From: an uncultured Candidatus Saccharibacteria bacterium | GTDB taxonomy: Bacteria; Patescibacteriota; Minisyncoccia; Phycocordibacterales; CAIZLB01 | Reading direction: 5' to 3' | NCBI GenBank assembly: GCA_964417855.1 | Contig: CAYQJB010000001.1 | Coordinates: 38,709-102,708 of the forward strand | Length of the DNA: 64,000 nucleotides | Shown here: piece by piece, positions 8,953-42,288 of the stretch | Numbering within the stretch: the stretch's first letter is position 1 | Layout of the letters: every line of letters begins with the position of its first letter | Made by a program: the position numbers and the translations under genes | The notes under the pieces: generated by a model | Told to the model about the DNA's origin: nothing | Database searches by the model: none | The model's input: only the letters and a program-made list of their open reading frames with translations

Positions 8953-9517
8953 GATGTTTTAATTTAACCCCCAATCTCTGTTTGGCCCTTCGGATAAGTG
9001 TTGCGACCGAACCTGTTGGAATTTGTAAAATGTCAGATATATTTTCATAGTCTCTGTCTTCAAAGTATCTGAGGACTAGAACGTCTCTATATTTCTGATC
9101 GATTTCTAAAATTGCCTTACCTAATAATTTGGAATTTATTTTTTCATCAATTTCCTGAACCAAATCGATATTTTCATCTTCAATTCTAAAGATAATTTCC
9201 TCGCTATCGTCAATCATGTTACCTTCCGGTCTCGCCTTATTGTGCCTAAAAAATGAGATAGCCTCATTGTGAGATATTCTGTAAATCCAAGAAGAAAAAG
9301 AAAGGTCCTTATTGAAAGAGTTTATATTTTTATAAATTTTTATGAAAACATCCTGAAGAAGATCTTCCATATCCTCATCCTTATAAACACCAATTCGCTT
9401 AAGGTACCTTGAAAGTGGGGCTTGATATCTGTCAATTAAAACAGACATAGCTCCATGTTTTGACGCAATAAGTAGTTCTACTAGCTCGCCATCTGTTTTT
9501 TTTGAGATATCGTCCAT
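8930..9517 (-). CDS. ECF-type sigma-70 family RNA polymerase sigma factor
   Basis: Region 2 (FSSWIYRISHNEAISFFR) and region 4 HTH (YENISDILQIPTGSVATLIRRAKQRL). Confidence 0.8.
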   Translation of the reverse strand: MDDISKKTDGELVELLIASKHGAMSVLIDRYQAPLSRYLKRIGVYKDEDMEDLLQDVFIKIYKNINSFNKDLSFSSWIYRISHNEAISFFRHNKARPEGNMIDDSEEIIFRIEDENIDLVQEIDEKINSKLLGKAILEIDQKYRDVLVLRYFEDRDYENISDILQIPTGSVATLIRRAKQRLGVKLKHLENSIQK

Positions 9518-9863
9518 ATTCTATATAATACAAAGCTCCTAATACAAAGCTCCACAGGATACTACATATATTACTACGTATAATAAAGTATCTAATTTCA
9601 AATAGCTACCAAGAGCACAAGTTTGAATATTTAGAATTCTGTCAGAAATCAAAACAAGCCAGGTTGAACAACCTTATTATTACCCTTGACAATAAACATA
9701 TTCCATAATATAATATGAAAAGAGTTACCGCCGAATACTCCACTAGGTAAAAGGGTGTCATCGAACCCGAGTCACCTGTGTGGGTTACTCGTTTGACATC
9801 TGGGCTTGTGCCACGTCACCTGAAAGTGATGAAAAAGTACTTAGATTCTAGGCATACACAAAA

Positions 9864-10487
9864 ATGACGACTAACCAAAAAAAACTGATTGAAAAGACAG
9901 GCGGACTATTTGGGAGGATCAATGCTGTTGTGCACCCAAATGACAAAGGCATTATCTTCAAGGTAAATGCGGAAGACTGTTTGCAAGAGGCAAGAAGCTG
10001 GAACCAAATCAAAATTGTCCTGTTGATGATTACTTCATTAGCAATTGCAGCTGTGATTGTGGACTTTGGTCTGCCGTTGTGGTATTTGCTGCCTGGCACC
10101 ATTATCATTGGAACGATGATGGGCAAGTTCGATAAAAAGAACAACAAAATGAGGCTCATCATCGGCCTAGCCAAGAAGTGGTCTCCTAATCGGAGAAAAC
10201 TTTTGCAGCTTACGAAGGGGGTCACCATTCCCGCTGTACAGCAGGAATATACTGACGACGCCGACCTGCGTGCCTACCTAATGGAACCACTGTTCAAGAC
10301 GATTGCAAATGCAATCGCCTACAAGGTGGTCAAAATTGAGAGTCTGACTGGTGAATCAAAACACCCCAAGGAAGACAAGAAACGAAAGGAACTGAATGAG
10401 TTGGCTGGGGCCTTCAATATGTCAATTCCGTGGACGGAGATCTTCAAGGAATCCGTTAGTATATTCGGGAAGCGTGAGAGGATTTAA
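9864..10487 (+). CDS. hypothetical protein with two TM helices; GC-richer than surroundings
   Basis: ORF. Local GC approx 43-50% by hand count against approx 32% background. Has its own GC-rich terminator. Confidence 0.5.
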   Translation: MTTNQKKLIEKTGGLFGRINAVVHPNDKGIIFKVNAEDCLQEARSWNQIKIVLLMITSLAIAAVIVDFGLPLWYLLPGTIIIGTMMGKFDKKNNKMRLIIGLAKKWSPNRRKLLQLTKGVTIPAVQQEYTDDADLRAYLMEPLFKTIANAIAYKVVKIESLTGESKHPKEDKKRKELNELAGAFNMSIPWTEIFKESVSIFGKRERI

Positions 10488-13224: not shown

Positions 13225-15105
13225 ATGAAAAAATACATCAACTCAAATAGCATACTTGTCGTGACTATCTTGATTGCCCTCATAAGCTATGCCTTTCTAA
13301 GATCCACAGAATATAGGCAATATATTGATACGATTATTGTATCCATAACAATTATAGGTTCCCTTCCTATAGCCTATAATCTAATAATTTCCATATACAA
13401 AAAACAGTTTGGAGTGGATCTTATCGCTCTTTTTGCAATTATAGCAACGCTTTTGACCAACGAGCATCTCGCTGGTGCAATTATTCTTTTAATGCTTTCT
13501 ACTGGAGTTTTTCTTGAAAAATATGCAGAAGGCCAAGCAAAAAATGCACTGGAAAATCTATTAAGATACGCCCCCACAAAGGCACATAGAGTTATAAAAG
13601 GTACAACAAATTTTGAGGATATAACTGTTCAAGAAATTAAAATTGGTGACACACTACTTATTAAACGAGGAGAAATTATGCCCGTCGATGGCGTTGTTGT
13701 TTCAGGAGTATCTTCAATTGATGAATCTATTGTTACCGGAGAACCAATGCCAAGGAGTGTTAAACCGAGTTCAAAGGTTTGGAGTGGTACTACAAATACA
13801 GTTGATGTAATTTATATTAAGTCTACAACAAATTATGAACAAAGTACTTTCTCAGCAATCATCAGATTAGTAGAAAGAGCTCAAGATGAAAAAGCTCCCA
13901 CAGTTAGGTTGGCAAACAAATTCAGTGTAGTCTTCACTGTCACGACTTTCATTATGGCTGGTATCGCATGGTACATTGATCCAAAACTAGTTGCAGCTGT
14001 TTTAGTTGTTGCAACACCCTGCCCTCTTATCCTAGCGGCGCCGATTGCTTTCATTGCTGGAATGAGTAGATCAGCAAAGAATGGAATTATAGTTAAGCAT
14101 GGTGGAGTGTTTGAATTAATTACAAAAGCGCATTCTTTCTTTTTCGATAAAACAGGCACGCTCACTTTTGGTGTACCTCAGGTGAATAAAATTATTATTT
14201 TGGATAATAGTTCTGATAAAGGTATATCAGCAAAAAAGTGGACCAAGGAGGAGGTCTTAGCACTCTCTGCTTCTGTTGAACAATTCTCTACACATATACT
14301 TTCACAAAGTATTGTAGCCCTTGCTAACACTCAAAAACTTGATTTATTTGTACCTGAAAAGTTTGAAGAAACATTAGGTCAGGGTATAAGTGGGATAGTT
14401 AAGACAAATAGTCATGAGGCTACAGTTGTTGACGGTAGAGCGTCCCTGTTAGAATCAAAAGGAATTACAATTAGCGGTGAGGCAAAAAGACTTGTCGCAG
14501 AAGCAAAGGCCACAGGGGAGATGGCAATATACATTGCGGTTAATAACAGAAATGTTGCAGTGATGACTTTCTCAGACAAAATAAGAAGTGACATTGCTGA
14601 TATTTTAGAAAAGATAAAAGAAACAGGAGCTGAAATTGTTTTGGTAACTGGCGACACTGAGGATAGGGCTCAAAAAATTGGTGAAGAATTAGGTTTTACG
14701 ATAATTGAAGCGAATTGTCTACCAGAACATAAGATGGATTTAATACAAAAATATGAAGCCGCTGGAAAGCCTGTAGTGATGATTGGTGATGGAGTTAATG
14801 ACGCACCAGCAATCGGACGAGCAAGCGTTGGTATTGCACTTGGATATCATGGAGCAACTGCATCGACGGATACAGCTGATGCAATAATTACCTCAGATGA
14901 TACAGCAAAGGTTTTAAAATTAATTCAGATTAGCCATAAGACAATGACCATTGCCATGCAGTCTATTTTTATTGGAATGGCATTAAGTTTAACAGCAATG
15001 GTTTTTGCTATATTTGGTTTTATAACTCCAATTTCAGGTGCGCTACTTCAGGAAGCGATTGATGTTTTGGTTATATTAAATGCTTTGCGTGCGCTGAGGA
15101 ATTAA
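13225..15105 (+). CDS. P-type cation-transporting ATPase (P1B-like, no N-terminal metal-binding domain)
   Basis: TGEP, DKTGTLT, GDGVNDAPA, and a TPCPL (CPx-like) motif in a TM helix. Confidence 0.8.
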   Translation: MKKYINSNSILVVTILIALISYAFLRSTEYRQYIDTIIVSITIIGSLPIAYNLIISIYKKQFGVDLIALFAIIATLLTNEHLAGAIILLMLSTGVFLEKYAEGQAKNALENLLRYAPTKAHRVIKGTTNFEDITVQEIKIGDTLLIKRGEIMPVDGVVVSGVSSIDESIVTGEPMPRSVKPSSKVWSGTTNTVDVIYIKSTTNYEQSTFSAIIRLVERAQDEKAPTVRLANKFSVVFTVTTFIMAGIAWYIDPKLVAAVLVVATPCPLILAAPIAFIAGMSRSAKNGIIVKHGGVFELITKAHSFFFDKTGTLTFGVPQVNKIIILDNSSDKGISAKKWTKEEVLALSASVEQFSTHILSQSIVALANTQKLDLFVPEKFEETLGQGISGIVKTNSHEATVVDGRASLLESKGITISGEAKRLVAEAKATGEMAIYIAVNNRNVAVMTFSDKIRSDIADILEKIKETGAEIVLVTGDTEDRAQKIGEELGFTIIEANCLPEHKMDLIQKYEAAGKPVVMIGDGVNDAPAIGRASVGIALGYHGATASTDTADAIITSDDTAKVLKLIQISHKTMTIAMQSIFIGMALSLTAMVFAIFGFITPISGALLQEAIDVLVILNALRALRN

Positions 15106-15165
15106 TACATATCACAATAGCCCAAAGACTACTTATAACGCTAATATTCGTAGAACCTGATTAAT

Positions 15166-15195
15166 TTGACACAAAAATATAATCCATGATAAACT
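15166..15195 (+). promoter_or_regulatory. sigma70-like element TTGACA-N18-TAAACT, antisense to the mazF-like gene 3' end
   Basis: Motif read directly. The same -10 context gaTAAACT..AGTAC recurs at 40720-40747. The same -35 context ttaatTTGACAC recurs at 15794. Confidence 0.35.
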
Positions 15196-15268
15196 GTAAG
15201 TACGTTTTGAGATTAACGTGCACAGTTGATCTTTTGATTCTGGTTTAGCAATGAACCAGATGACAATT

Positions 15269-15687
15269 TTAGGGAAGCTCAAGTAAAATCTTGAGTTTTT
15301 CTTTTACCTTATTTAAATCAGATAGGCTAAGTTCCCCTATTTTTACAGATAATCTCTTTTTATCAATCATGCGAATCTGATATAACATCACACATACAAC
15401 CTCATTGTTCAATCTGACGTTTGAAAACCATGTACCTTTTTTTGTTTGTAAGTCATCGGCAGCCCGATACACAGACTTGAGGATAATTTCTTAATTACTA
15501 AAATAGGACGTCTAAATACATCTCCTTTGCCAAACGACTCCTCCCCAACATTAATACCAACAGAACACCACCATACGTCACCCTCTCTAAAGTACATCAC
15601 CTGATTTTGATAATGTTCAGCAAATTGAATACTTTGTTTTTTACTATTCCAATCATTGTATTTCTCTATCTTTTTTTCTTTTTCCAT
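15269..15687 (-). pseudogene. MazF/EndoA (PemK)-family endoribonuclease toxin, split into two frames (15409-15687 and 15269-15472) at an A7 tract
   Basis: The two partial ORFs align collinearly with the intact 139-aa paralog at 40783-41202. The frame break is at CAAAAAAAG (15436-15442). Confidence 0.6.
15277..15305 (+). terminator. plus-strand hairpin CTCAAG-taaaat-CTTGAG plus TTTTTCTTTT, overlapping the stop of 15269-15687
   Basis: Read directly. The U-tract is on the plus-strand side only. Confidence 0.45.
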
Positions 15688-15723
15688 TCAACAAACATAA
15701 CAAATCACACCTATGATTTTCAT
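15688..15723 (-). CDS. mini-ORF MKIIGVICYVC; its stop TGA abuts the mazF ATG
   Basis: Hand translation. The first 9 codons resemble the N-terminus of NYN protein 15876-16391 (MKIAGVVCY). Confidence 0.3.
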   Translation of the reverse strand: MKIIGVICYVC

Positions 15724-15751
15724 AAAGAAATTCTAAATAAAACCATTAGTA
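15716..15751 (-). promoter_or_regulatory. conserved leader motif ATTTAGAATTTCTTTATGAAAAT (minus-strand reading), copy 1 of 3
   Basis: 33 of 36 nt identical to 16384-16419. A related copy lies at 41231-41264. Confidence 0.5.
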
Positions 15752-15793
15752 GATATAAAATATACCGATTGCCACCGATAGAATCCTATTAAT

Positions 15794-15821
15794 TTGACAC
15801 GAACGAGCGCCCTACTATATA
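15794..15821 (+). promoter_or_regulatory. sigma70-like element TTGACA-N16-TATATA, preceded by the tagaatcctattaatTTGACAC context
   Basis: 19 of 22 nt identical to 15151-15172. Confidence 0.3.
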
Positions 15822-15835
15822 CTATAAATACGCCA

Positions 15836-15884
15836 AAAAAGATCTTGTTAAGCCGCGTGCTTAATGAGAGCTTTTTTATTTTTC
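15836..15884. terminator. long imperfect hairpin (17-bp stem, one mismatch) AAAAGATCTTGTTAAGC-cgcgt-GCTTAATGAGAGCTTTT plus T-tract, at the NYN gene stop
   Basis: Read directly; bidirectional (A-tract before, T-tract after). Confidence 0.6.
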
Positions 15885-16391
15885 TAGATGACGCTTAATT
15901 TGTATCAAGTACATAAGCCTTAAGTATGATCTCTGTTTTATAAAAATCGATGTGCTTGATGGAGTCACCGCTATACATAAAACTAATTTACCCATATCAC
16001 GAGCGTAATCCATTAAGAAGACAAAGTTCCCATCACCTGATATTATTACTATTTTATCAACCAGACTTCTCTCCACGTCTAGTGTCATTCTGTTTGTTAG
16101 TTCAACGTCACAATTGGCTTTAATTCTACCTCCCTCCATAGATATTTGTTTTATGACTAATTCAACACGGTACTCATTGAGAGTATATTTAATATTTTCT
16201 AAATACAGGACATCACCGACAAAGAAAATTATTTTACAATCTTTATGTTTATCATAAAGATATTTAAAAAGCTTACCTAAATCTAAATTAAAATTTATTC
16301 TTTTTGCACACAGAATAACATTAGCTGCATCTATATATATTGAGGTTAATTTCACCCCTAGATGGTAGCAAACCACTCCTGCTATTTTCAT
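15876..16391 (-). CDS. NYN-domain (LabA/PIN-like) predicted RNase
   Basis: IYIDAANV N-terminus and IISGDGNFV (GDxDF-type) motif. Confidence 0.65.
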   Translation of the reverse strand: MKIAGVVCYHLGVKLTSIYIDAANVILCAKRINFNLDLGKLFKYLYDKHKDCKIIFFVGDVLYLENIKYTLNEYRVELVIKQISMEGGRIKANCDVELTNRMTLDVERSLVDKIVIISGDGNFVFLMDYARDMGKLVLCIAVTPSSTSIFIKQRSYLRLMYLIQIKRHLEK

Positions 16392-16419
16392 AAAGAAATT
16401 CTAAATAAAACCACTAGTA
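16384..16419 (-). promoter_or_regulatory. conserved leader motif, copy 2, overlapping the NYN start codon
   Basis: See 15716-15751. Confidence 0.5.
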
Positions 16420-16422
16420 AAA

Positions 16423-16644
16423 CTACTCCACTATATCCAAAATCTTAGACGGATGATGATGCCCTGTAACTATTCTAACTTTTGATCTAACAATCTTAAA
16501 TTCCCCAGCAAGCAATTCAATCATTCTTCTGTTGGCCCTATTCCCTTCCGCAGGTTCTTTTACATGAACAATAAAACTCGCATCATTCTTTTTAACGATT
16601 TTATCTTCCTTACTATCCGGCTTAATCTTTACGTGCATCAACAT
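16423..16644 (-). CDS. DUF167 (YggU/UPF0235) family small protein
   Basis: VHVKEPAEGNRANRRMIELLAGEFKIVRSKVRIVTGHHHPSKIL fits the DUF167 pattern. Confidence 0.55.
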   Translation of the reverse strand: MLMHVKIKPDSKEDKIVKKNDASFIVHVKEPAEGNRANRRMIELLAGEFKIVRSKVRIVTGHHHPSKILDIVE

Positions 16645-16656
16645 TTATTATTATTT

Positions 16657-16702
16657 TAGGTCAGGCGATTTTGGTCAAAGACCTAAATCGTGCGCCTAAC
16701 CT
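16657..16702. repeat. degenerate composite palindrome: GGTCAGGCGATTT / GGTCaaaGACC / AAATCGtgCGCCTaACC
   Basis: Shares the GGTCAGGC..GCCTGACC arms with the 28-bp palindrome family. Confidence 0.5.
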
Positions 16703-39664: not shown

Positions 39665-40567
39665 TTATTCCGCAAAGAACTTTTTCTCTGCCTGTATAAA
39701 ATCGTCCAGATCTCCACTTAAAACATTCTCCACCTTACTAGTCTCCTCCCCAGTCCTATGATCCTTAACCATTTTATATGGATGAAGTACATATGATCTT
39801 ATCTGATTCCCCCACTCGGCATCCGTAGTCTTGCTCACATATAAACCTTTTTCTTTTGCCAGTCTTTCTTCTTCTTGATGTGCATATATTTTGGCCTTCA
39901 ACATTGCAATTCCTTTTTCTCTATTCTGTAACTGCGAACGTTCAGTTGTAACATGCACAGACATTTTTGTTGGCTTATGAACAATCCTAACTGCAGTTTC
40001 CCTTTTATTTACATTCTGTCCCCCAGGACCTCCGGCTCTTGCATAGGAGTATTCCAATTCATCTTCTGGAATTTCAATATCAACTTCCCTTTCAAATTTT
40101 GGTACAACCTCAACCATAGAAAAACTTGTATGTCTTAATTGTTTTGAATTAAACGGAGAAAGTCTAACAAGCCTATGCACTCCTGACTCATGTTTTAAAG
40201 TTCCGTAAGCGTTCTTTCCATCTATGTCAAAAGAGACATTTCTGTATCCTCCGTGATCATTTTTGTGTTCGTGAATCAAGGTCATACTCCAGCCTTTTTT
40301 TGAGATGAACTTCTGATACATTTCAAATAGCATTCTAGAGAAATCTTCTGAATCATCCCCTCCAGCTCCTGAGAAGATTGTAATAATAGCCGAGCCTCCG
40401 TCATAAGGGCTTCCACCAAGACCGCTTGCAAGCTCTGTTTTTAGGTCCTGAAGCTCTTTTATTGTAGCCTGCGCTGTTGTTGAATCATTCCAAAAATCAA
40501 CAGCGTTCATTGCTGATTCTATTTCAATTATTCTAGCTTCTTTTTCTTTTTTGTTTAGATTATTCAT
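39665..40567 (-). CDS. prfB: peptide chain release factor 2
   Basis: SPF tripeptide and GGQ motif (GGPGGQNVNKRET). Confidence 0.85.
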   Translation of the reverse strand: MNNLNKKEKEARIIEIESAMNAVDFWNDSTTAQATIKELQDLKTELASGLGGSPYDGGSAIITIFSGAGGDDSEDFSRMLFEMYQKFISKKGWSMTLIHEHKNDHGGYRNVSFDIDGKNAYGTLKHESGVHRLVRLSPFNSKQLRHTSFSMVEVVPKFEREVDIEIPEDELEYSYARAGGPGGQNVNKRETAVRIVHKPTKMSVHVTTERSQLQNREKGIAMLKAKIYAHQEEERLAKEKGLYVSKTTDAEWGNQIRSYVLHPYKMVKDHRTGEETSKVENVLSGDLDDFIQAEKKFFAE

Positions 40568-40719
40568 GTTTTTAGACCTGATTAAGCATATTTTCCTAAC
40601 ACGATTCGCATTACTCCATCTACTCCGTGACCCTTCCCTTTTATTGGTATTTTAGCATAAATTTGGGTTTTCTTTATCTTTCCCTTGGTAATTCGAAACC
40701 CCGCCAGATAAACAAAAAT

Positions 40720-40747
40720 TTGACAAGCCAAAATTATTTGATAAACT
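40720..40747 (+). promoter_or_regulatory. sigma70-like element TTGACA-N16-TAAACT, antisense to and 35 nt upstream of the mazF stop
   Basis: Same gaTAAACT...AGTAC context as 15188-15203. Confidence 0.35.
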
Positions 40748-40773
40748 AAAAGTACAAATGGGGTATCCCAACC

Positions 40774-40818
40774 GCCCGAGCCTTAAAACCGCTCGGGCTT
40801 AAGGTTTGATTTTATTTT
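40774..40818 (+). terminator. plus-strand hairpin GCCCGAGC-N9-GCTCGGGC followed by a T-rich run, overlapping the mazF stop
   Basis: Read directly. Confidence 0.45.
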
Positions 40819-41202
40819 AATCAGATCTTTTATAGACCTCTGTATCATTGCGAAATCTTTGTCTGACAAATATCCGATATGAGTGTCTAGCCTTTTTGTA
40901 TCCAAAACCCTAAGTTGAGAGATTATAACAGACTGCTCAGTATTTTTCAGTAAGACCTTCACATAATAGATATTGTCTTTATTTTTAGTACTCATTGGTA
41001 TTCCCCAAAAAATGTTATTATTGAATTTTTTGAATACCAAAACAGGCCTTCGAAATATATACCCTTTTCCGTTTTCTTCATCCCCAACATTCTCCCCCAG
41101 TGCGCACCATCGAACCTCACCTTCTTTAATATAGATTCCCTTCCTTTCTTTTTTATCCAAATTAATTTTCACATATATCCAATCAATAAATATTTTTAGC
41201 AT
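40783..41202 (-). CDS. MazF/EndoA (PemK)-family endoribonuclease toxin with approx 25-aa N-terminal extension; no antitoxin gene adjacent
   Basis: EGEVRWCALGENVGDEENGKG..RRPVLV and SVIISQLRVLDTKRLDTHIGYLSDKDFAMIQRSI align with B. subtilis EndoA ([25 protein letters not shown] / [32 protein letters not shown]). Confidence 0.7.
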   Translation of the reverse strand: MLKIFIDWIYVKINLDKKERKGIYIKEGEVRWCALGENVGDEENGKGYIFRRPVLVFKKFNNNIFWGIPMSTKNKDNIYYVKVLLKNTEQSVIISQLRVLDTKRLDTHIGYLSDKDFAMIQRSIKDLIKIKSNLKPERF

Positions 41203-41214
41203 TTAGAAATGTTA

Positions 41215-41238
41215 TCAAAATGCAAGTGTGATTTTCAT
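41215..41238 (-). CDS. mini-ORF MKITLAF, 12 nt upstream of the mazF ATG
   Basis: Hand translation. Lies within conserved leader motif copy 3 (41231-41264). Confidence 0.25.
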   Translation of the reverse strand: MKITLAF

Positions 41239-41286
41239 TAACAAATTATAAAGAAATTCCAAATTTTTTATAAACATACGTGAAAT

Positions 41287-41363
41287 TGGAGCCAATGGAC
41301 GGGATCGAACCGTCGGCCTGCACGTTACGAATGTGCCGCTCTACCAACTGAGCTACATCGGCT
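41287..41363 (-). tRNA. tRNA-Thr (anticodon CGU), CCA encoded
   Basis: Cloverleaf: GCCGATG/CATTGGC acceptor, GCTC-AGTTGGTA-GAGC D-arm, TTCGTAA anticodon loop, GACGG-TTCGATC-CCGTC T-arm. Confidence 0.85.
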
Positions 41364-41427
41364 TAAATAAGTCACTCACTATCTCACTTTTCCACACAGC
41401 ATATTAACACTCACATACAATACTACT

Positions 41428-42288
41428 CTATCCCTTTTTTACCAGTTTTGAAAACAGGTCCATTATTACCTTAGTATTTTTGCCGACAACTCCATCACCA
41501 ACCTTATCTTTATCAACCATAACAATTGGAACGATATCTTTATAAGAGGAGGTTAGAAAAATTTCATCTGCCTTCTTCATCTCTTCTATTGTGACGTCTC
41601 TTTCCTCAATCTTAAAATGCTTTTTTGCAATATCAAGCACGGCCATTCTGGTTATACCGAATAGAACATTATCTTTTGGAGTAACAAGTGTATCACCGAA
41701 GAACATAAAAATATTACTTGTTGAACACTCAAGAATTTTTCCCTTATCGGTGAATAGTATCTCTATTGCTTTTTCTTTCTTACGCTTAACCTGTAAACTA
41801 ACTGTGGTTATGTAATGAGTACTTTTTACATCAGGCATAAAACGTTGATGTTCTTCTACAATAATCTTTCCACCTTTTATATATAAGTCTTCAGGAAGTG
41901 GAGTCCATTTTTCTGCTATTACAAAAAAAGTAGGTGTGTTTACATTGAATTCTATTCCCCTAATTGCGTCACCCCCTGTTAAAATCATTTTTAAATTAGT
42001 TCTTTCAAACCCATTCTTTTTTATAAGCGTCTTTAGAATTTGCTCTATCTCAACATCTGTAGATGGTATTTGTAGTCCGAGTTTTTTTGCAGATCTTTTA
42101 AATCTAGCCAAATGTTGTTTAAGGTAAAAAGGTTTATCGCCGTAAGCTGTAATTCCTTCATATATTGCATACCCTCTCAAAAGTCCAATATCGTAACAAC
42201 TCACGTAAAGTTTATCAGCTCTCTCTATCTTTCCATTTATATAGCAATAAGGCTTAATGCTTGGCTTACCCGTTTTTTCTGATGTCAT
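41428..42288 (-). CDS. class IV PLP-dependent aminotransferase (branched-chain or D-amino-acid aminotransferase)
   Basis: Fold-type IV pattern, approx 286 aa with an EILFTDKGKILE region. Catalytic Lys not pinpointed. Confidence 0.6.
   Translation of the reverse strand: MTSEKTGKPSIKPYCYINGKIERADKLYVSCYDIGLLRGYAIYEGITAYGDKPFYLKQHLARFKRSAKKLGLQIPSTDVEIEQILKTLIKKNGFERTNLKMILTGGDAIRGIEFNVNTPTFFVIAEKWTPLPEDLYIKGGKIIVEEHQRFMPDVKSTHYITTVSLQVKRKKEKAIEILFTDKGKILECSTSNIFMFFGDTLVTPKDNVLFGITRMAVLDIAKKHFKIEERDVTIEEMKKADEIFLTSSYKDIVPIVMVDKDKVGDGVVGKNTKVIMDLFSKLVKKG

Follow-up and report, generated by a model that had tools for sequence, protein, structure and literature searches.

How is a MazF-like RNase kept in check when no MazE-like gene stands beside it? 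The question is raised by a stretch of 64,000 nucleotides (nt) from an uncultured Candidatus Saccharibacteria bacterium (contig CAYQJB010000001.1, positions 38,709 to 102,708; hereafter the window), in which two MazF-like genes, mazF1 and mazF2, and a gene for a NYN-domain RNase lie on the minus strand, as do almost all genes of the window. MazF is a textbook type II toxin, for which control by MazE is taken as defining. An earlier reading of the window (the original prediction) proposed that short plus-strand RNAs converge on the 3' ends of these three genes and control them, and that the genes share a leader with mini open reading frames (ORFs). Comparison with homologous loci, designated here by L-numbers (L020, L025 and so on), suggests that these genes belong to a widespread and apparently undescribed RNA-controlled toxin module; the type of module is known, and MazF and NYN RNases appear to be new as its cargo. 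The core convergent-RNA interpretation is well supported by the comparative data, and the part concerning the leader and its mini-ORFs proved wrong.

Beyond the stop codon of each toxin gene, the plus strand carries a promoter pointing back into the gene, for a predicted small RNA (sRNA) that we number sRNA1 (mazF1), sRNA2 (mazF2) and sRNA3 (NYN). The TTGACA/-10 pairs originally noted at 15166, 15794 and 40720 are all in place, and a promoter-quality scan of the whole window returns 8 sites this good, three of which are these toxin-linked elements. Their shared context had been assigned to the wrong copies: TAGAAYC..TTAATTTGACAC is common to the elements at 15151 and 15779, and GATAAACTnnAAGTAC to those at 15166 and 40720. 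The sRNA3 promoter is preceded by a conserved block, TAGAATCCTATTAAT, and repeat D4 in this stretch is 84% identical to 15151-15175. To place these elements in a wider setting, we drew on a genome collection of 185,579 species, where 357 of 484 candidate stretches encode relatives, and surveyed 80 loci, on one-genome-per-species contigs, that contain homologues of the intact mazF1 product; their hosts include many Patescibacteria, Rickettsiales, Bdellovibrionales and Campylobacterota. Of the MazF-like genes, 61/79 have, no more than 150 nt past the stop codon, an antisense promoter with a score of 10/12 or higher, as against 6/79 for the sense strand and 12/201 random windows. The sRNA2-type promoter also recurs past the mazF2 gene of L025 and past metagenomic mazF2 homologues. 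A TTGACA/-10 pair likewise follows the NYN genes of L025, L182, L183, L184, L099, L100 and L101, and in L038 the -10 region is visible before the locus ends.

The predicted transcripts are as conserved as their promoters in layout. Past almost every MazF-like homologue, the antisense strand reads TTGACA, 16-18 nt, (TGn)TAnnnT, about 6 nt, and then a transcript starting with ACAAAUGG, which is invariant in 25/25 sequences. A first hairpin (H1) follows, which reads GGG-UUAU-CCC in close relatives and, in distant ones, has a GCC/GGC stem capped by a UUCG loop. Next come a GAUCG linker and a GC-rich second hairpin (H2) abutting or spanning the toxin stop codon; the end is U-rich or, in some loci, formed by another clear terminator within the last toxin codons. 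In sRNA1, the 5' ACAAAU tail leads into H1 (40759-40770, a GGG/CCC stem) and H2 (40774-40798, GCCCGAGC/GCUCGGGC); the latter spans the mazF stop, as originally noted, with the stop codon (40783-40785) in its loop, and the U-rich tail enters the last toxin codons. An alignment of 25 sequences (A2) has its helices 87% paired, with changes on both sides in 10/14 pairs; this covariation is reached in 0/500 shuffles, and shifted registers drop to 28-53% pairing. A covariance model built from 21 sequences (R1) has 35 matches with E < 0.01 in 438 kb, every one of them directly 3' of a mazF1-type gene and on the opposite strand. The sole such match in the window is to sRNA1 (40754-40803, 62.9 bits, E = 4.5e-22).

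The RNAs linked to mazF2 consist of a 5' ACUUUU tail, a GGG..CCC H1, an often UUCG-looped H2 and an intrinsic terminator, H3 (AAGCUCGAG...CUCGAGUUUUUCUUUU), which in more than 30 loci, metagenomic ones included, lies inside the codons of the conserved toxin C-terminus VKEKLxxLLEL. The alignment of their 5' domain (A6) is 97.8% paired, 5/6 H2 pairs covary, and UUUGGG...CCC is invariant in 27/27 sequences. In sRNA2 the three hairpins occupy 15209-15233, 15239-15260 and 15271-15302, the last of them followed by a T tract and situated within the last ~12 toxin codons; the L025 counterpart also folds into these three hairpins, of which H1 and H2 differ in sequence. The NYN-linked RNAs have a 5' ACG(C)CAAAAAAG tail, one long hairpin and a U6AU5 tract. 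In sRNA3 these are a ACGCCAAAAAAG tail, a hairpin at 15835-15877 that takes in a terminator-like stem-loop (15843-15869, followed by a T tract), and a U6AU5 tract over the NYN stop codon (15876-15878). The NYN genes of L025, L182, L183, L184 and L038 are followed by the same promoter, tail and hairpin. Among these homologous RNAs two G·U pairs are conserved and a compensatory change turns U-A into C-G; with the diverged versions in L099, L100 and L101, the same architecture serves NYN in 9 genomes. The NYN ORF of the homologues runs through the hairpin, so that the overlap there is about 35-45 nt. Across the three classes, the 5' motif varies with the toxin type: ACAAAU for mazF1, ACUUUU for mazF2 and ACGAAAAAG for NYN. 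Promoter, hairpins and covariation, conserved beside hundreds of homologues, strongly support the prediction of short convergent plus-strand RNAs at the MazF and NYN 3' ends.

Could the downstream element instead be a sense-strand structure, namely a cis-acting 3'-untranslated-region fold or terminator of the toxin mRNA, the TTGACA boxes being chance matches in AT-rich DNA? The hairpins do fold on the sense strand too, and for sRNA1 the energies are comparable (-22.6 kcal/mol, z = -3.1, versus -24.3 for the sense strand); for sRNA3 they are -16.3 kcal/mol (z = -3.4) versus -13.2. The substitutions can be read for strand, as A·C cells on the antisense strand would be G·U on the toxin strand. 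Counts of 45 G·U and 9 A·C cells favour the strand antisense to the toxin, CUUCGG / C(UUCG)G tetraloops number 16 on the antisense strand and 1 on the sense strand, and sRNA2 folds with -35.0 kcal/mol (z = -5.3) as against -17.1 (z = -1.9) for the opposite strand. It follows from these three comparisons that the functional structured RNA is the one antisense to the toxin. Since, moreover, the boxes stand at a fixed spacing in 61/79 loci against a background of about 6%, we consider the sense-strand explanation very improbable.

We also considered a small peptide encoded by sRNA1 (AUG in ACAAAUGGG, MGYP..., about 14 amino acids (aa)), and rejected it. Changes in H1 preserve pairing and are non-synonymous (such as GGA UUA UUC in L024 and L185), the ORF length varies, and the distant and mazF2-type RNAs have no AUG. 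This open frame (40757-40801 in the window, and in homologues) often ends at a TTAA palindrome shared with the toxin stop.

Table 1. Features of the three toxin cassettes in the window; transcripts and promoters are predictions.
Feature	Position	Strand	Basis
mazF1-type MazF-like toxin gene, intact, 139 aa	40783..41202	-	Pfam PemK_toxin PF02452, 8.5e-13
mazF1 upstream promoter element	41203..41270	-	sequence reading; nhmmer 41270-41200, E = 0.0066
sRNA1 promoter, TTGACA, 16 nt, TG-a-TAAACT	40720..40747	+	scan 10/12 with TG extension
sRNA1, predicted, about 50-70 nt	40754..40822	+	covariance model R1 and fold
mazF2-type MazF-like gene, frameshifted, 419 nt	15269..15687	-	ORFs 15409-15687 and 15269-15472, each a partial PemK match
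mazF2 upstream promoter element	15688..15751	-	sequence reading; nhmmer 15743-15685, E = 2e-4; repeat D1
sRNA2 promoter, TTGACA 15166-15171, 18 nt, TG-a-TAAACT 15190-15195, with conserved upstream block	15141..15195	+	scan 10/12 with TG extension
sRNA2, predicted, about 104 nt, three hairpins	15202..15305	+	fold, terminator scan and L025 counterpart
NYN-domain RNase gene, start corrected to GTG 16355-16353, 159 aa	15876..16355	-	Pfam NYN 3.3e-14
NYN upstream promoter element	16356..16419	-	nhmmer 16418-16357, E = 2e-7
sRNA3 promoter, TTGACA 15794-15799, 18 nt, TATACT 15818-15823 (or 16-TATATA)	15779..15823	+	scan 11/12
sRNA3, predicted, about 55 nt	15830..15885	+	terminator scan 15843-15869 and T tract
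Upstream motif copies	15716-15737, 16384-16405, 41231-41252		each just upstream of one toxin gene

The cargo of the cassettes is clearest for mazF1, whose product, judged by its Pfam match and modelled fold, is a bona fide MazF. Its 203 homologues are 60-83% identical to it, and the profile of the family matches S. aureus MazF. The AlphaFold model, of moderate confidence (pLDDT 71) and with a poorly defined N-terminal helix, has MazF structures as all its best matches in the PDB (for example 4mzp and 1ne8, E about 1e-6), and the top 50 Foldseek matches in the PDB are MazF-family toxins only (MazF, YdcE, MoxT). Arg52, in the motif RRPVLV, never varies and corresponds in the alignment to Arg25, the catalytic arginine of B. 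subtilis MazF; Ser71/Thr72 are nearly invariant, the alignment of their loop to Thr48 being uncertain. From the fold and the residue conservation, the toxin looks active. The family also has a conserved N-terminal extension of ~25 aa, MxKRFIDWIxxKIxIDKKER.

The mazF2 gene represents a second MazF subfamily, for which databases yield 116 homologues and metagenomes at least 584 matches. The original prediction took 15269-15687 for a single gene; it consists of two ORFs broken by a frameshift at an A7 run (15437-15443), where the frames join at the heptamer A_AAA_AAG, and the same break is present in every population contig. When a -1 shift is simulated, the product has 139 aa; blastp aligns its first 127 residues with the intact L025 homologue at 58% identity, and the aligned C-termini also agree by eye. 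The heptamer is in frame in mazF2 and is the slippery site classically associated with -1 frameshifting in bacteria, dnaX being an example. An A8 to A7 deletion may have made mazF2 a pseudogene, or the gene may undergo programmed frameshifting at low efficiency.

A search for a protein antitoxin among the genes flanking the toxins returned none. No antitoxin-like protein gene adjoins them: the toxin start borders directly on the upstream element, and the toxin stop on the sRNA gene. The same-strand neighbours are housekeeping genes of all sizes, the upstream neighbours are heterogeneous, and ten small upstream ORFs in distant loci match neither MazE nor AbrB nor ribbon-helix-helix proteins. 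The absence of an adjacent MazE-like partner, as the original prediction had it, thus holds for the flanking genes that the search covered. PADLOC has no match or model for these proteins. Rfam 15 contains no match to the window elements or to 58 related loci, at gathering score or below it; the permissive scans extended to E = 5 for 38 of the 58 loci and to E = 10 for the mazF1 region of the window. The matches at gathering score are tRNAs and one unrelated DUF3800-II motif. That motif lies in L041 (4207-4272, minus strand, 47.6 bits), a locus that also has two MazF-like genes. The literature, as far as covered, holds no account of MazF or NYN genes with convergent sRNAs, nor of such modules in Patescibacteria. 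As far as Rfam 15 and this coverage reach, then, the suggestion of an undescribed family stands.

What would such an RNA do? Each locus can be read as a self-contained cassette of a dedicated promoter, an RNase toxin gene and a convergent sRNA gene, in which the sRNA is probably an antitoxin that overlaps the toxin 3' end, in a type I-like manner by analogy with the 3'-overlap systems of Bacillus. The toxin promoter, which combines a poor -35 with an extended -10 and with upstream DNA that is A/T-rich and phased, would be rather weak and lie so near the start (TAnnnT, 6 nt, ATG/GTG) that the mRNA would be leaderless; the toxin made from it would be a MazF/PemK-fold endoribonuclease of either subfamily or a NYN-domain nuclease. 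The sRNA gene, with its near-consensus sigma-70 promoter 30-110 nt beyond the toxin stop, would be transcribed strongly and constitutively into an RNA of 50-105 nt: a short tail of A and U at the 5' end, then one or two conserved hairpins, and a 3' end within or beside the last codons of the toxin. The abundant sRNA would pair with the 3' end of the toxin mRNA, which would then be degraded or silenced, and once sRNA synthesis stopped the RNase would be made. The cis antisense overlap with the toxin mRNA, a type I trait, is predicted at 15269-15305, 15876-15885 and 40783-40822. Of the RNA-antitoxin-controlled RNase family originally envisaged, the comparative data establish the anatomy of the cassettes, the fold of the RNA with its strand and conservation, the link with toxin genes and the lack of an adjacent protein antitoxin; transcription, translation from leaderless mRNA, toxicity and the antitoxin role are what we infer.

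Several points weigh against the antisense antitoxin. Transcripts, transcript ends and toxicity are all predicted from sequence. The antitoxin search was confined to toxin-flanking genes, and a MazE elsewhere in the genome would escape it. About 15-20% of the homologues are without a clear antisense promoter. The U tract after H2 is interrupted in many mazF1 loci, which makes the sRNA 3' end and the length of the overlap uncertain. The type I toxins known to us are almost all small membrane peptides. Finally, the most conserved part of the sRNA, the 5' ACAAAU tail with the GGG/CCC hairpin, lies outside the toxin ORF; pure antisense pairing leaves it unexplained, and we therefore keep a type III-like mode of action as the main rival. 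Here the A/U tail and GGG/CCC hairpin would let the sRNA bind directly to the RNase protein, for which it would be a decoy or pseudo-substrate, and the 3' overlap would be incidental, the result of a shared terminator. The invariance of tail and H1 noted above, next to an H2 and an overlap that vary freely, speaks for such binding, as do the change of the 5' motif with toxin type and the precedent of ToxN, a MazF-like fold inhibited by RNA. However, there are no tandem repeats upstream, the toxin is a PemK/MazF protein and not ToxN, AbiQ, CptN or TenpN, and MazF and NYN, which have unrelated folds, share one layout, which fits RNA-RNA control more easily. We consider the type III-like mode rather unlikely.

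The sRNA could also be real and no antitoxin at all, serving as an insulator or attenuator through transcriptional interference and a shared bidirectional terminator, or as a substrate or cofactor of the RNase. Several H2 and H3 hairpins do have an A tract on their 5' side and a U tract on their 3' side, as bidirectional terminators. Pairing of the sRNA 5' domain in trans with the first 45 nt of the toxin mRNA was tried and rejected (RNAduplex mean z -0.53 over 20 modules), and this lack of complementarity to the mRNA 5' end would also suit an RNA that is not an antitoxin. Yet a plain terminator needs no near-consensus promoter, invariant 5' tail or conserved H1, and both the one-to-one linkage to toxins across phyla and the sRNAs kept beside broken toxins fit a protective partner better, so that a role other than antitoxin seems distinctly unlikely. 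The broken toxins are mazF2 of the window and those of L054 and L055, each next to an intact sRNA; as this is the order of decay expected for toxin-antitoxin pairs, it lends weak support to the antitoxin. The disrupted mazF1 genes with intact convergent sRNAs lie at L054 2501-2743, L055 2501-2752 and L027 about 2423-2857, the RNAs scoring 69-73 bits.

Measured against known systems, the antisense antitoxin comes closest to Bacillus txpA/RatA, bsrG/SR4 and bsrE/SR5, which have convergent genes, a strong RNA promoter, 3' overlap, a terminator hairpin shared with or embedded in the toxin 3' end, and no protein antitoxin. The cassettes differ from these in that the overlap may shrink to about 10-40 nt, the sRNA is best conserved outside it, the hosts are Patescibacteria and other phyla, and the toxins are soluble RNases of 130-160 aa where the Bacillus toxins are membrane peptides of <60 aa. 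The cassettes are not classical type I systems because a 139-aa MazF-like or 159-aa NYN protein is no small (<60 aa) hydrophobic membrane peptide. SymE/SymR and RalR/RalA, which pair a nuclease-type toxin with a cis-encoded or partly complementary sRNA, extend type I logic beyond membrane peptides; however, SymR overlaps the 5' end and ribosome-binding site of symE, SymE has an AbrB fold and RalR is a DNase, so that neither offers a MazF or NYN toxin or a 3' overlap. With type II MazEF/PemIK the cassettes share the toxin family, by Pfam and fold, and the catalytic Arg. They differ in the N-terminal extension, in a monocistronic toxin gene with its promoter at the start codon, and in the lack of an adjacent MazE/PemI; as no MazE was found beside the toxin, they are not type II MazEF.

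Type III systems (ToxIN, CptIN, TenpIN) resemble the cassettes in combining a Kid/MazF-like-fold endoribonuclease with a small structured RNA, RNA control being what is proposed here. The RNA genes differ: a single convergent gene on the opposite strand in the cassettes, tandem repeats upstream on the same strand in type III. Tandem Repeats Finder returned nothing in 14900-16700 and, in 40500-41500, only a weak 18-nt, 2.8-copy match inside the sRNA promoter; ToxI-like repeats upstream of the toxin were accordingly rejected for both regions. As to membership of ToxN/AbiQ, CptN or TenpN, PemK_toxin is the only family matched, PADLOC gives no match and the nearest folds are MazF. Lacking both an upstream repeat array and a ToxN-family toxin, the cassettes are not type III systems. 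The pemK RNA motif of Rfam, named for its association with pemK genes, was part of the Rfam 15 scans and matched neither the window elements nor the related loci scanned.

Turning to the toxin starts, the motif TTTAGAATTTCTTTATGAAAAT occurs (with up to 3 mismatches) at 3 sites in the 64 kb, against 0.02 expected by chance, and these adjoin the three RNase genes, as the original prediction said. Its identity between 15716-15751 and 16384-16419 is 35/36, slightly above the 33/36 first given, and the longer repeat D1 (15698-15751 versus 16366-16419, 54 nt) has 87% identity. In all three copies, an ATGAAA hexamer, a 4/6 match to the -35 consensus, precedes an 18-nt spacer and a -10-like box: ATGAAA 41238-41233, extended -10 TGA-TAACAT 41217-41209, 6 nt and ATG 41202 for mazF1; ATGAAA 15723-15718, TGT-TATGTT 15702-15694, TGTTGA and ATG 15687 for mazF2; ATGAAA 16391-16386, TGC-TACCAT 16370-16362, CTAGGG and then GTG for NYN. 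The ~65-nt element stands upstream of the toxin in about 30 related Parcubacteria/Paceibacteria genomes with the consensus CTTYGG..TCTTTAGAATTTCTTTATGARAAnTTTAgGgGTGnTTTGnTAnnnT-N6-ATG, and in about 34/38 close homologues the TAnnnT hexamer, often with an upstream TG, lies a fixed 6-7 nt before the toxin ATG. All this points to a promoter; given a TAnnnT box only 6 nt before the start codon, the toxin mRNAs are predicted to be leaderless.

That the motif codes a regulatory MKI leader peptide, whose translation would control the toxin, was suggested by open mini-frames abutting the mazF start codons, MKIIGVICYVC and MKITLAF, the former of which falls within the mazF2 promoter element. In several relatives, however, the MKI ATG is replaced by ATA, CAC, TAA, ATT or CTA, neither frame nor stop is conserved, some loci have the mini-frame fused to the toxin ORF, and the conserved positions belong to the TGnTAnnnT box at its fixed distance from the toxin ATG. 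The -35-like hexamer happens to read ATGAAA, and the MKI mini-ORFs are, as far as the comparison of loci can tell, promoter spacer read as codons; we find a leader peptide scarcely credible.

With the motif read as a promoter, the NYN start moves from the 16391 first given to GTG 16355, the longer model being an over-extension by 12 codons whose N-terminus, 'MKIAGVVCYHLG', is on this reading the promoter translated. The NYN homologues of L025, L038, L182, L183, L184 and L099 start at the equivalent of GTG 16355, just after their own -10 box (it is the start in five close homologues), and the alignment with the L025 protein (64% identity) begins at window residue 13. The NYN-gene element itself is kept upstream of NYN in L025, L038, L182, L183 and L184.

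Two further interpretations of the element were rejected. It is not a generic promoter of the organism, as an nhmmer profile built from other genomes, without the window copies, matches the window at the three toxins only; and it is not a family-wide trait of mazF2, being absent from most metagenomic mazF2 loci and hence lineage-specific. Nor is it specific to one toxin, for it precedes mazF1, mazF2, NYN and an unannotated 138-aa ORF in related genomes. Within the element, CTTTR pentamers recur about every 11 nt (15724-15751, 16392-16419, 41239-41270 and L020 2433-2500, the last reading CTTTG-N6-CTTTA-N6-CTTTA-N6-CTTTG), which suggests phased protein binding or DNA curvature, and the promoter spacer TTTAgGgGTG is unusually conserved.

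The cassettes vary in order and number. L025 has mazF2, NYN and mazF1 cassettes in a row, in an order unlike that of the window. Farther along the contig of the window (L185 1440-2580, about 243-247 kb), a tandem pair of additional mazF1 cassettes lies between efp and recA; both have the upstream element, an ATG predicted to be leaderless, and an sRNA1 (71.7 and 63.4 bits). This genome therefore has at least five cassettes. A block just upstream of each sRNA -35 (…ATTAGYGT..TAGAAYC..; toxin-strand consensus GGTTCTAYRAnnATTAG) lies at the outer cassette edge (window 15141-15165 and 15779-15793; L025 1503-1545, 2172-2215 and 2373-2410; L185 1975-2015) and could be an UP element, an operator or a recombination scar. 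The upstream half alone of the toxin promoter element precedes a 590-aa gene (L054 3613-3661, L025 3219-3271), which has a weak LCAT / alpha-beta hydrolase match and lies downstream of the cassette array; the half-element may be a cassette-boundary remnant. In L044 (40-680), the upstream element stands before the 138-aa ORF mentioned above (107-523, no Pfam match), which seems to start with ATC immediately past a TGGTAAAAT box and is followed by a convergent promoter, TTGACA-TGCTAAAAT; this ORF is a candidate fourth toxin cargo of the same chassis.

Taken further, the cassettes could form a class in which one convergent structured sRNA, built from an invariant A/U tail at its 5' end, a hairpin of the GGG/CCC or C(UUCG)G type and a terminator, neutralises MazF and NYN RNases both by protein binding or decoy through its 5' domain and by 3' antisense. 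Such a modular chassis, with mazF1, mazF2, NYN and the 138-aa ORF as cargo, would be multi-copy in the ultra-small genomes of the candidate phyla radiation (CPR), span at least four phyla and perhaps serve in abortive-infection defence; we put this forward tentatively, as a possibility. If the convergent RNAs are antitoxins, a large MazF lineage has had its protein antitoxin swapped for a convergent sRNA, which would blur the borders between types I, II and III, and the same chassis also serves NYN nucleases. The RNAs would also constitute a new structured family, among the few regulatory RNAs predicted in the CPR, where, to our knowledge, almost nothing is known of gene regulation or phage defence. 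Gene callers misannotate such loci, extending N-termini through the promoter and labelling the toxins type II, and the covariance models built here are a means of finding the modules.

Some observations stand apart from the cassettes of the window. In Sulfuricurvum and Sulfurimonas (L059, L061, L077 and L094), distant MazF-like homologues sit tightly between large genes, of which the one downstream begins, by a look at its sequence, like a type I restriction specificity subunit (…KLGEICKVIAGQSPEG…); L059 and L061 retain the arrangement of H2, UUCG-loop H1 and promoter. A perfect consensus promoter, TTGACA-17-TATAAT, occurs on the minority (plus) strand of the window at 9686-9714, in the intergenic region 9517-9848; no Rfam match lies downstream of it, and it may drive the gene at 9864-10487 or an unannotated RNA. 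The NYN homologue of L101 (1501-2004) has an in-frame stop (...LFF*LKDKY...), and the translation of the locus differs from the database protein, which would fit a lineage with a reassigned stop codon.

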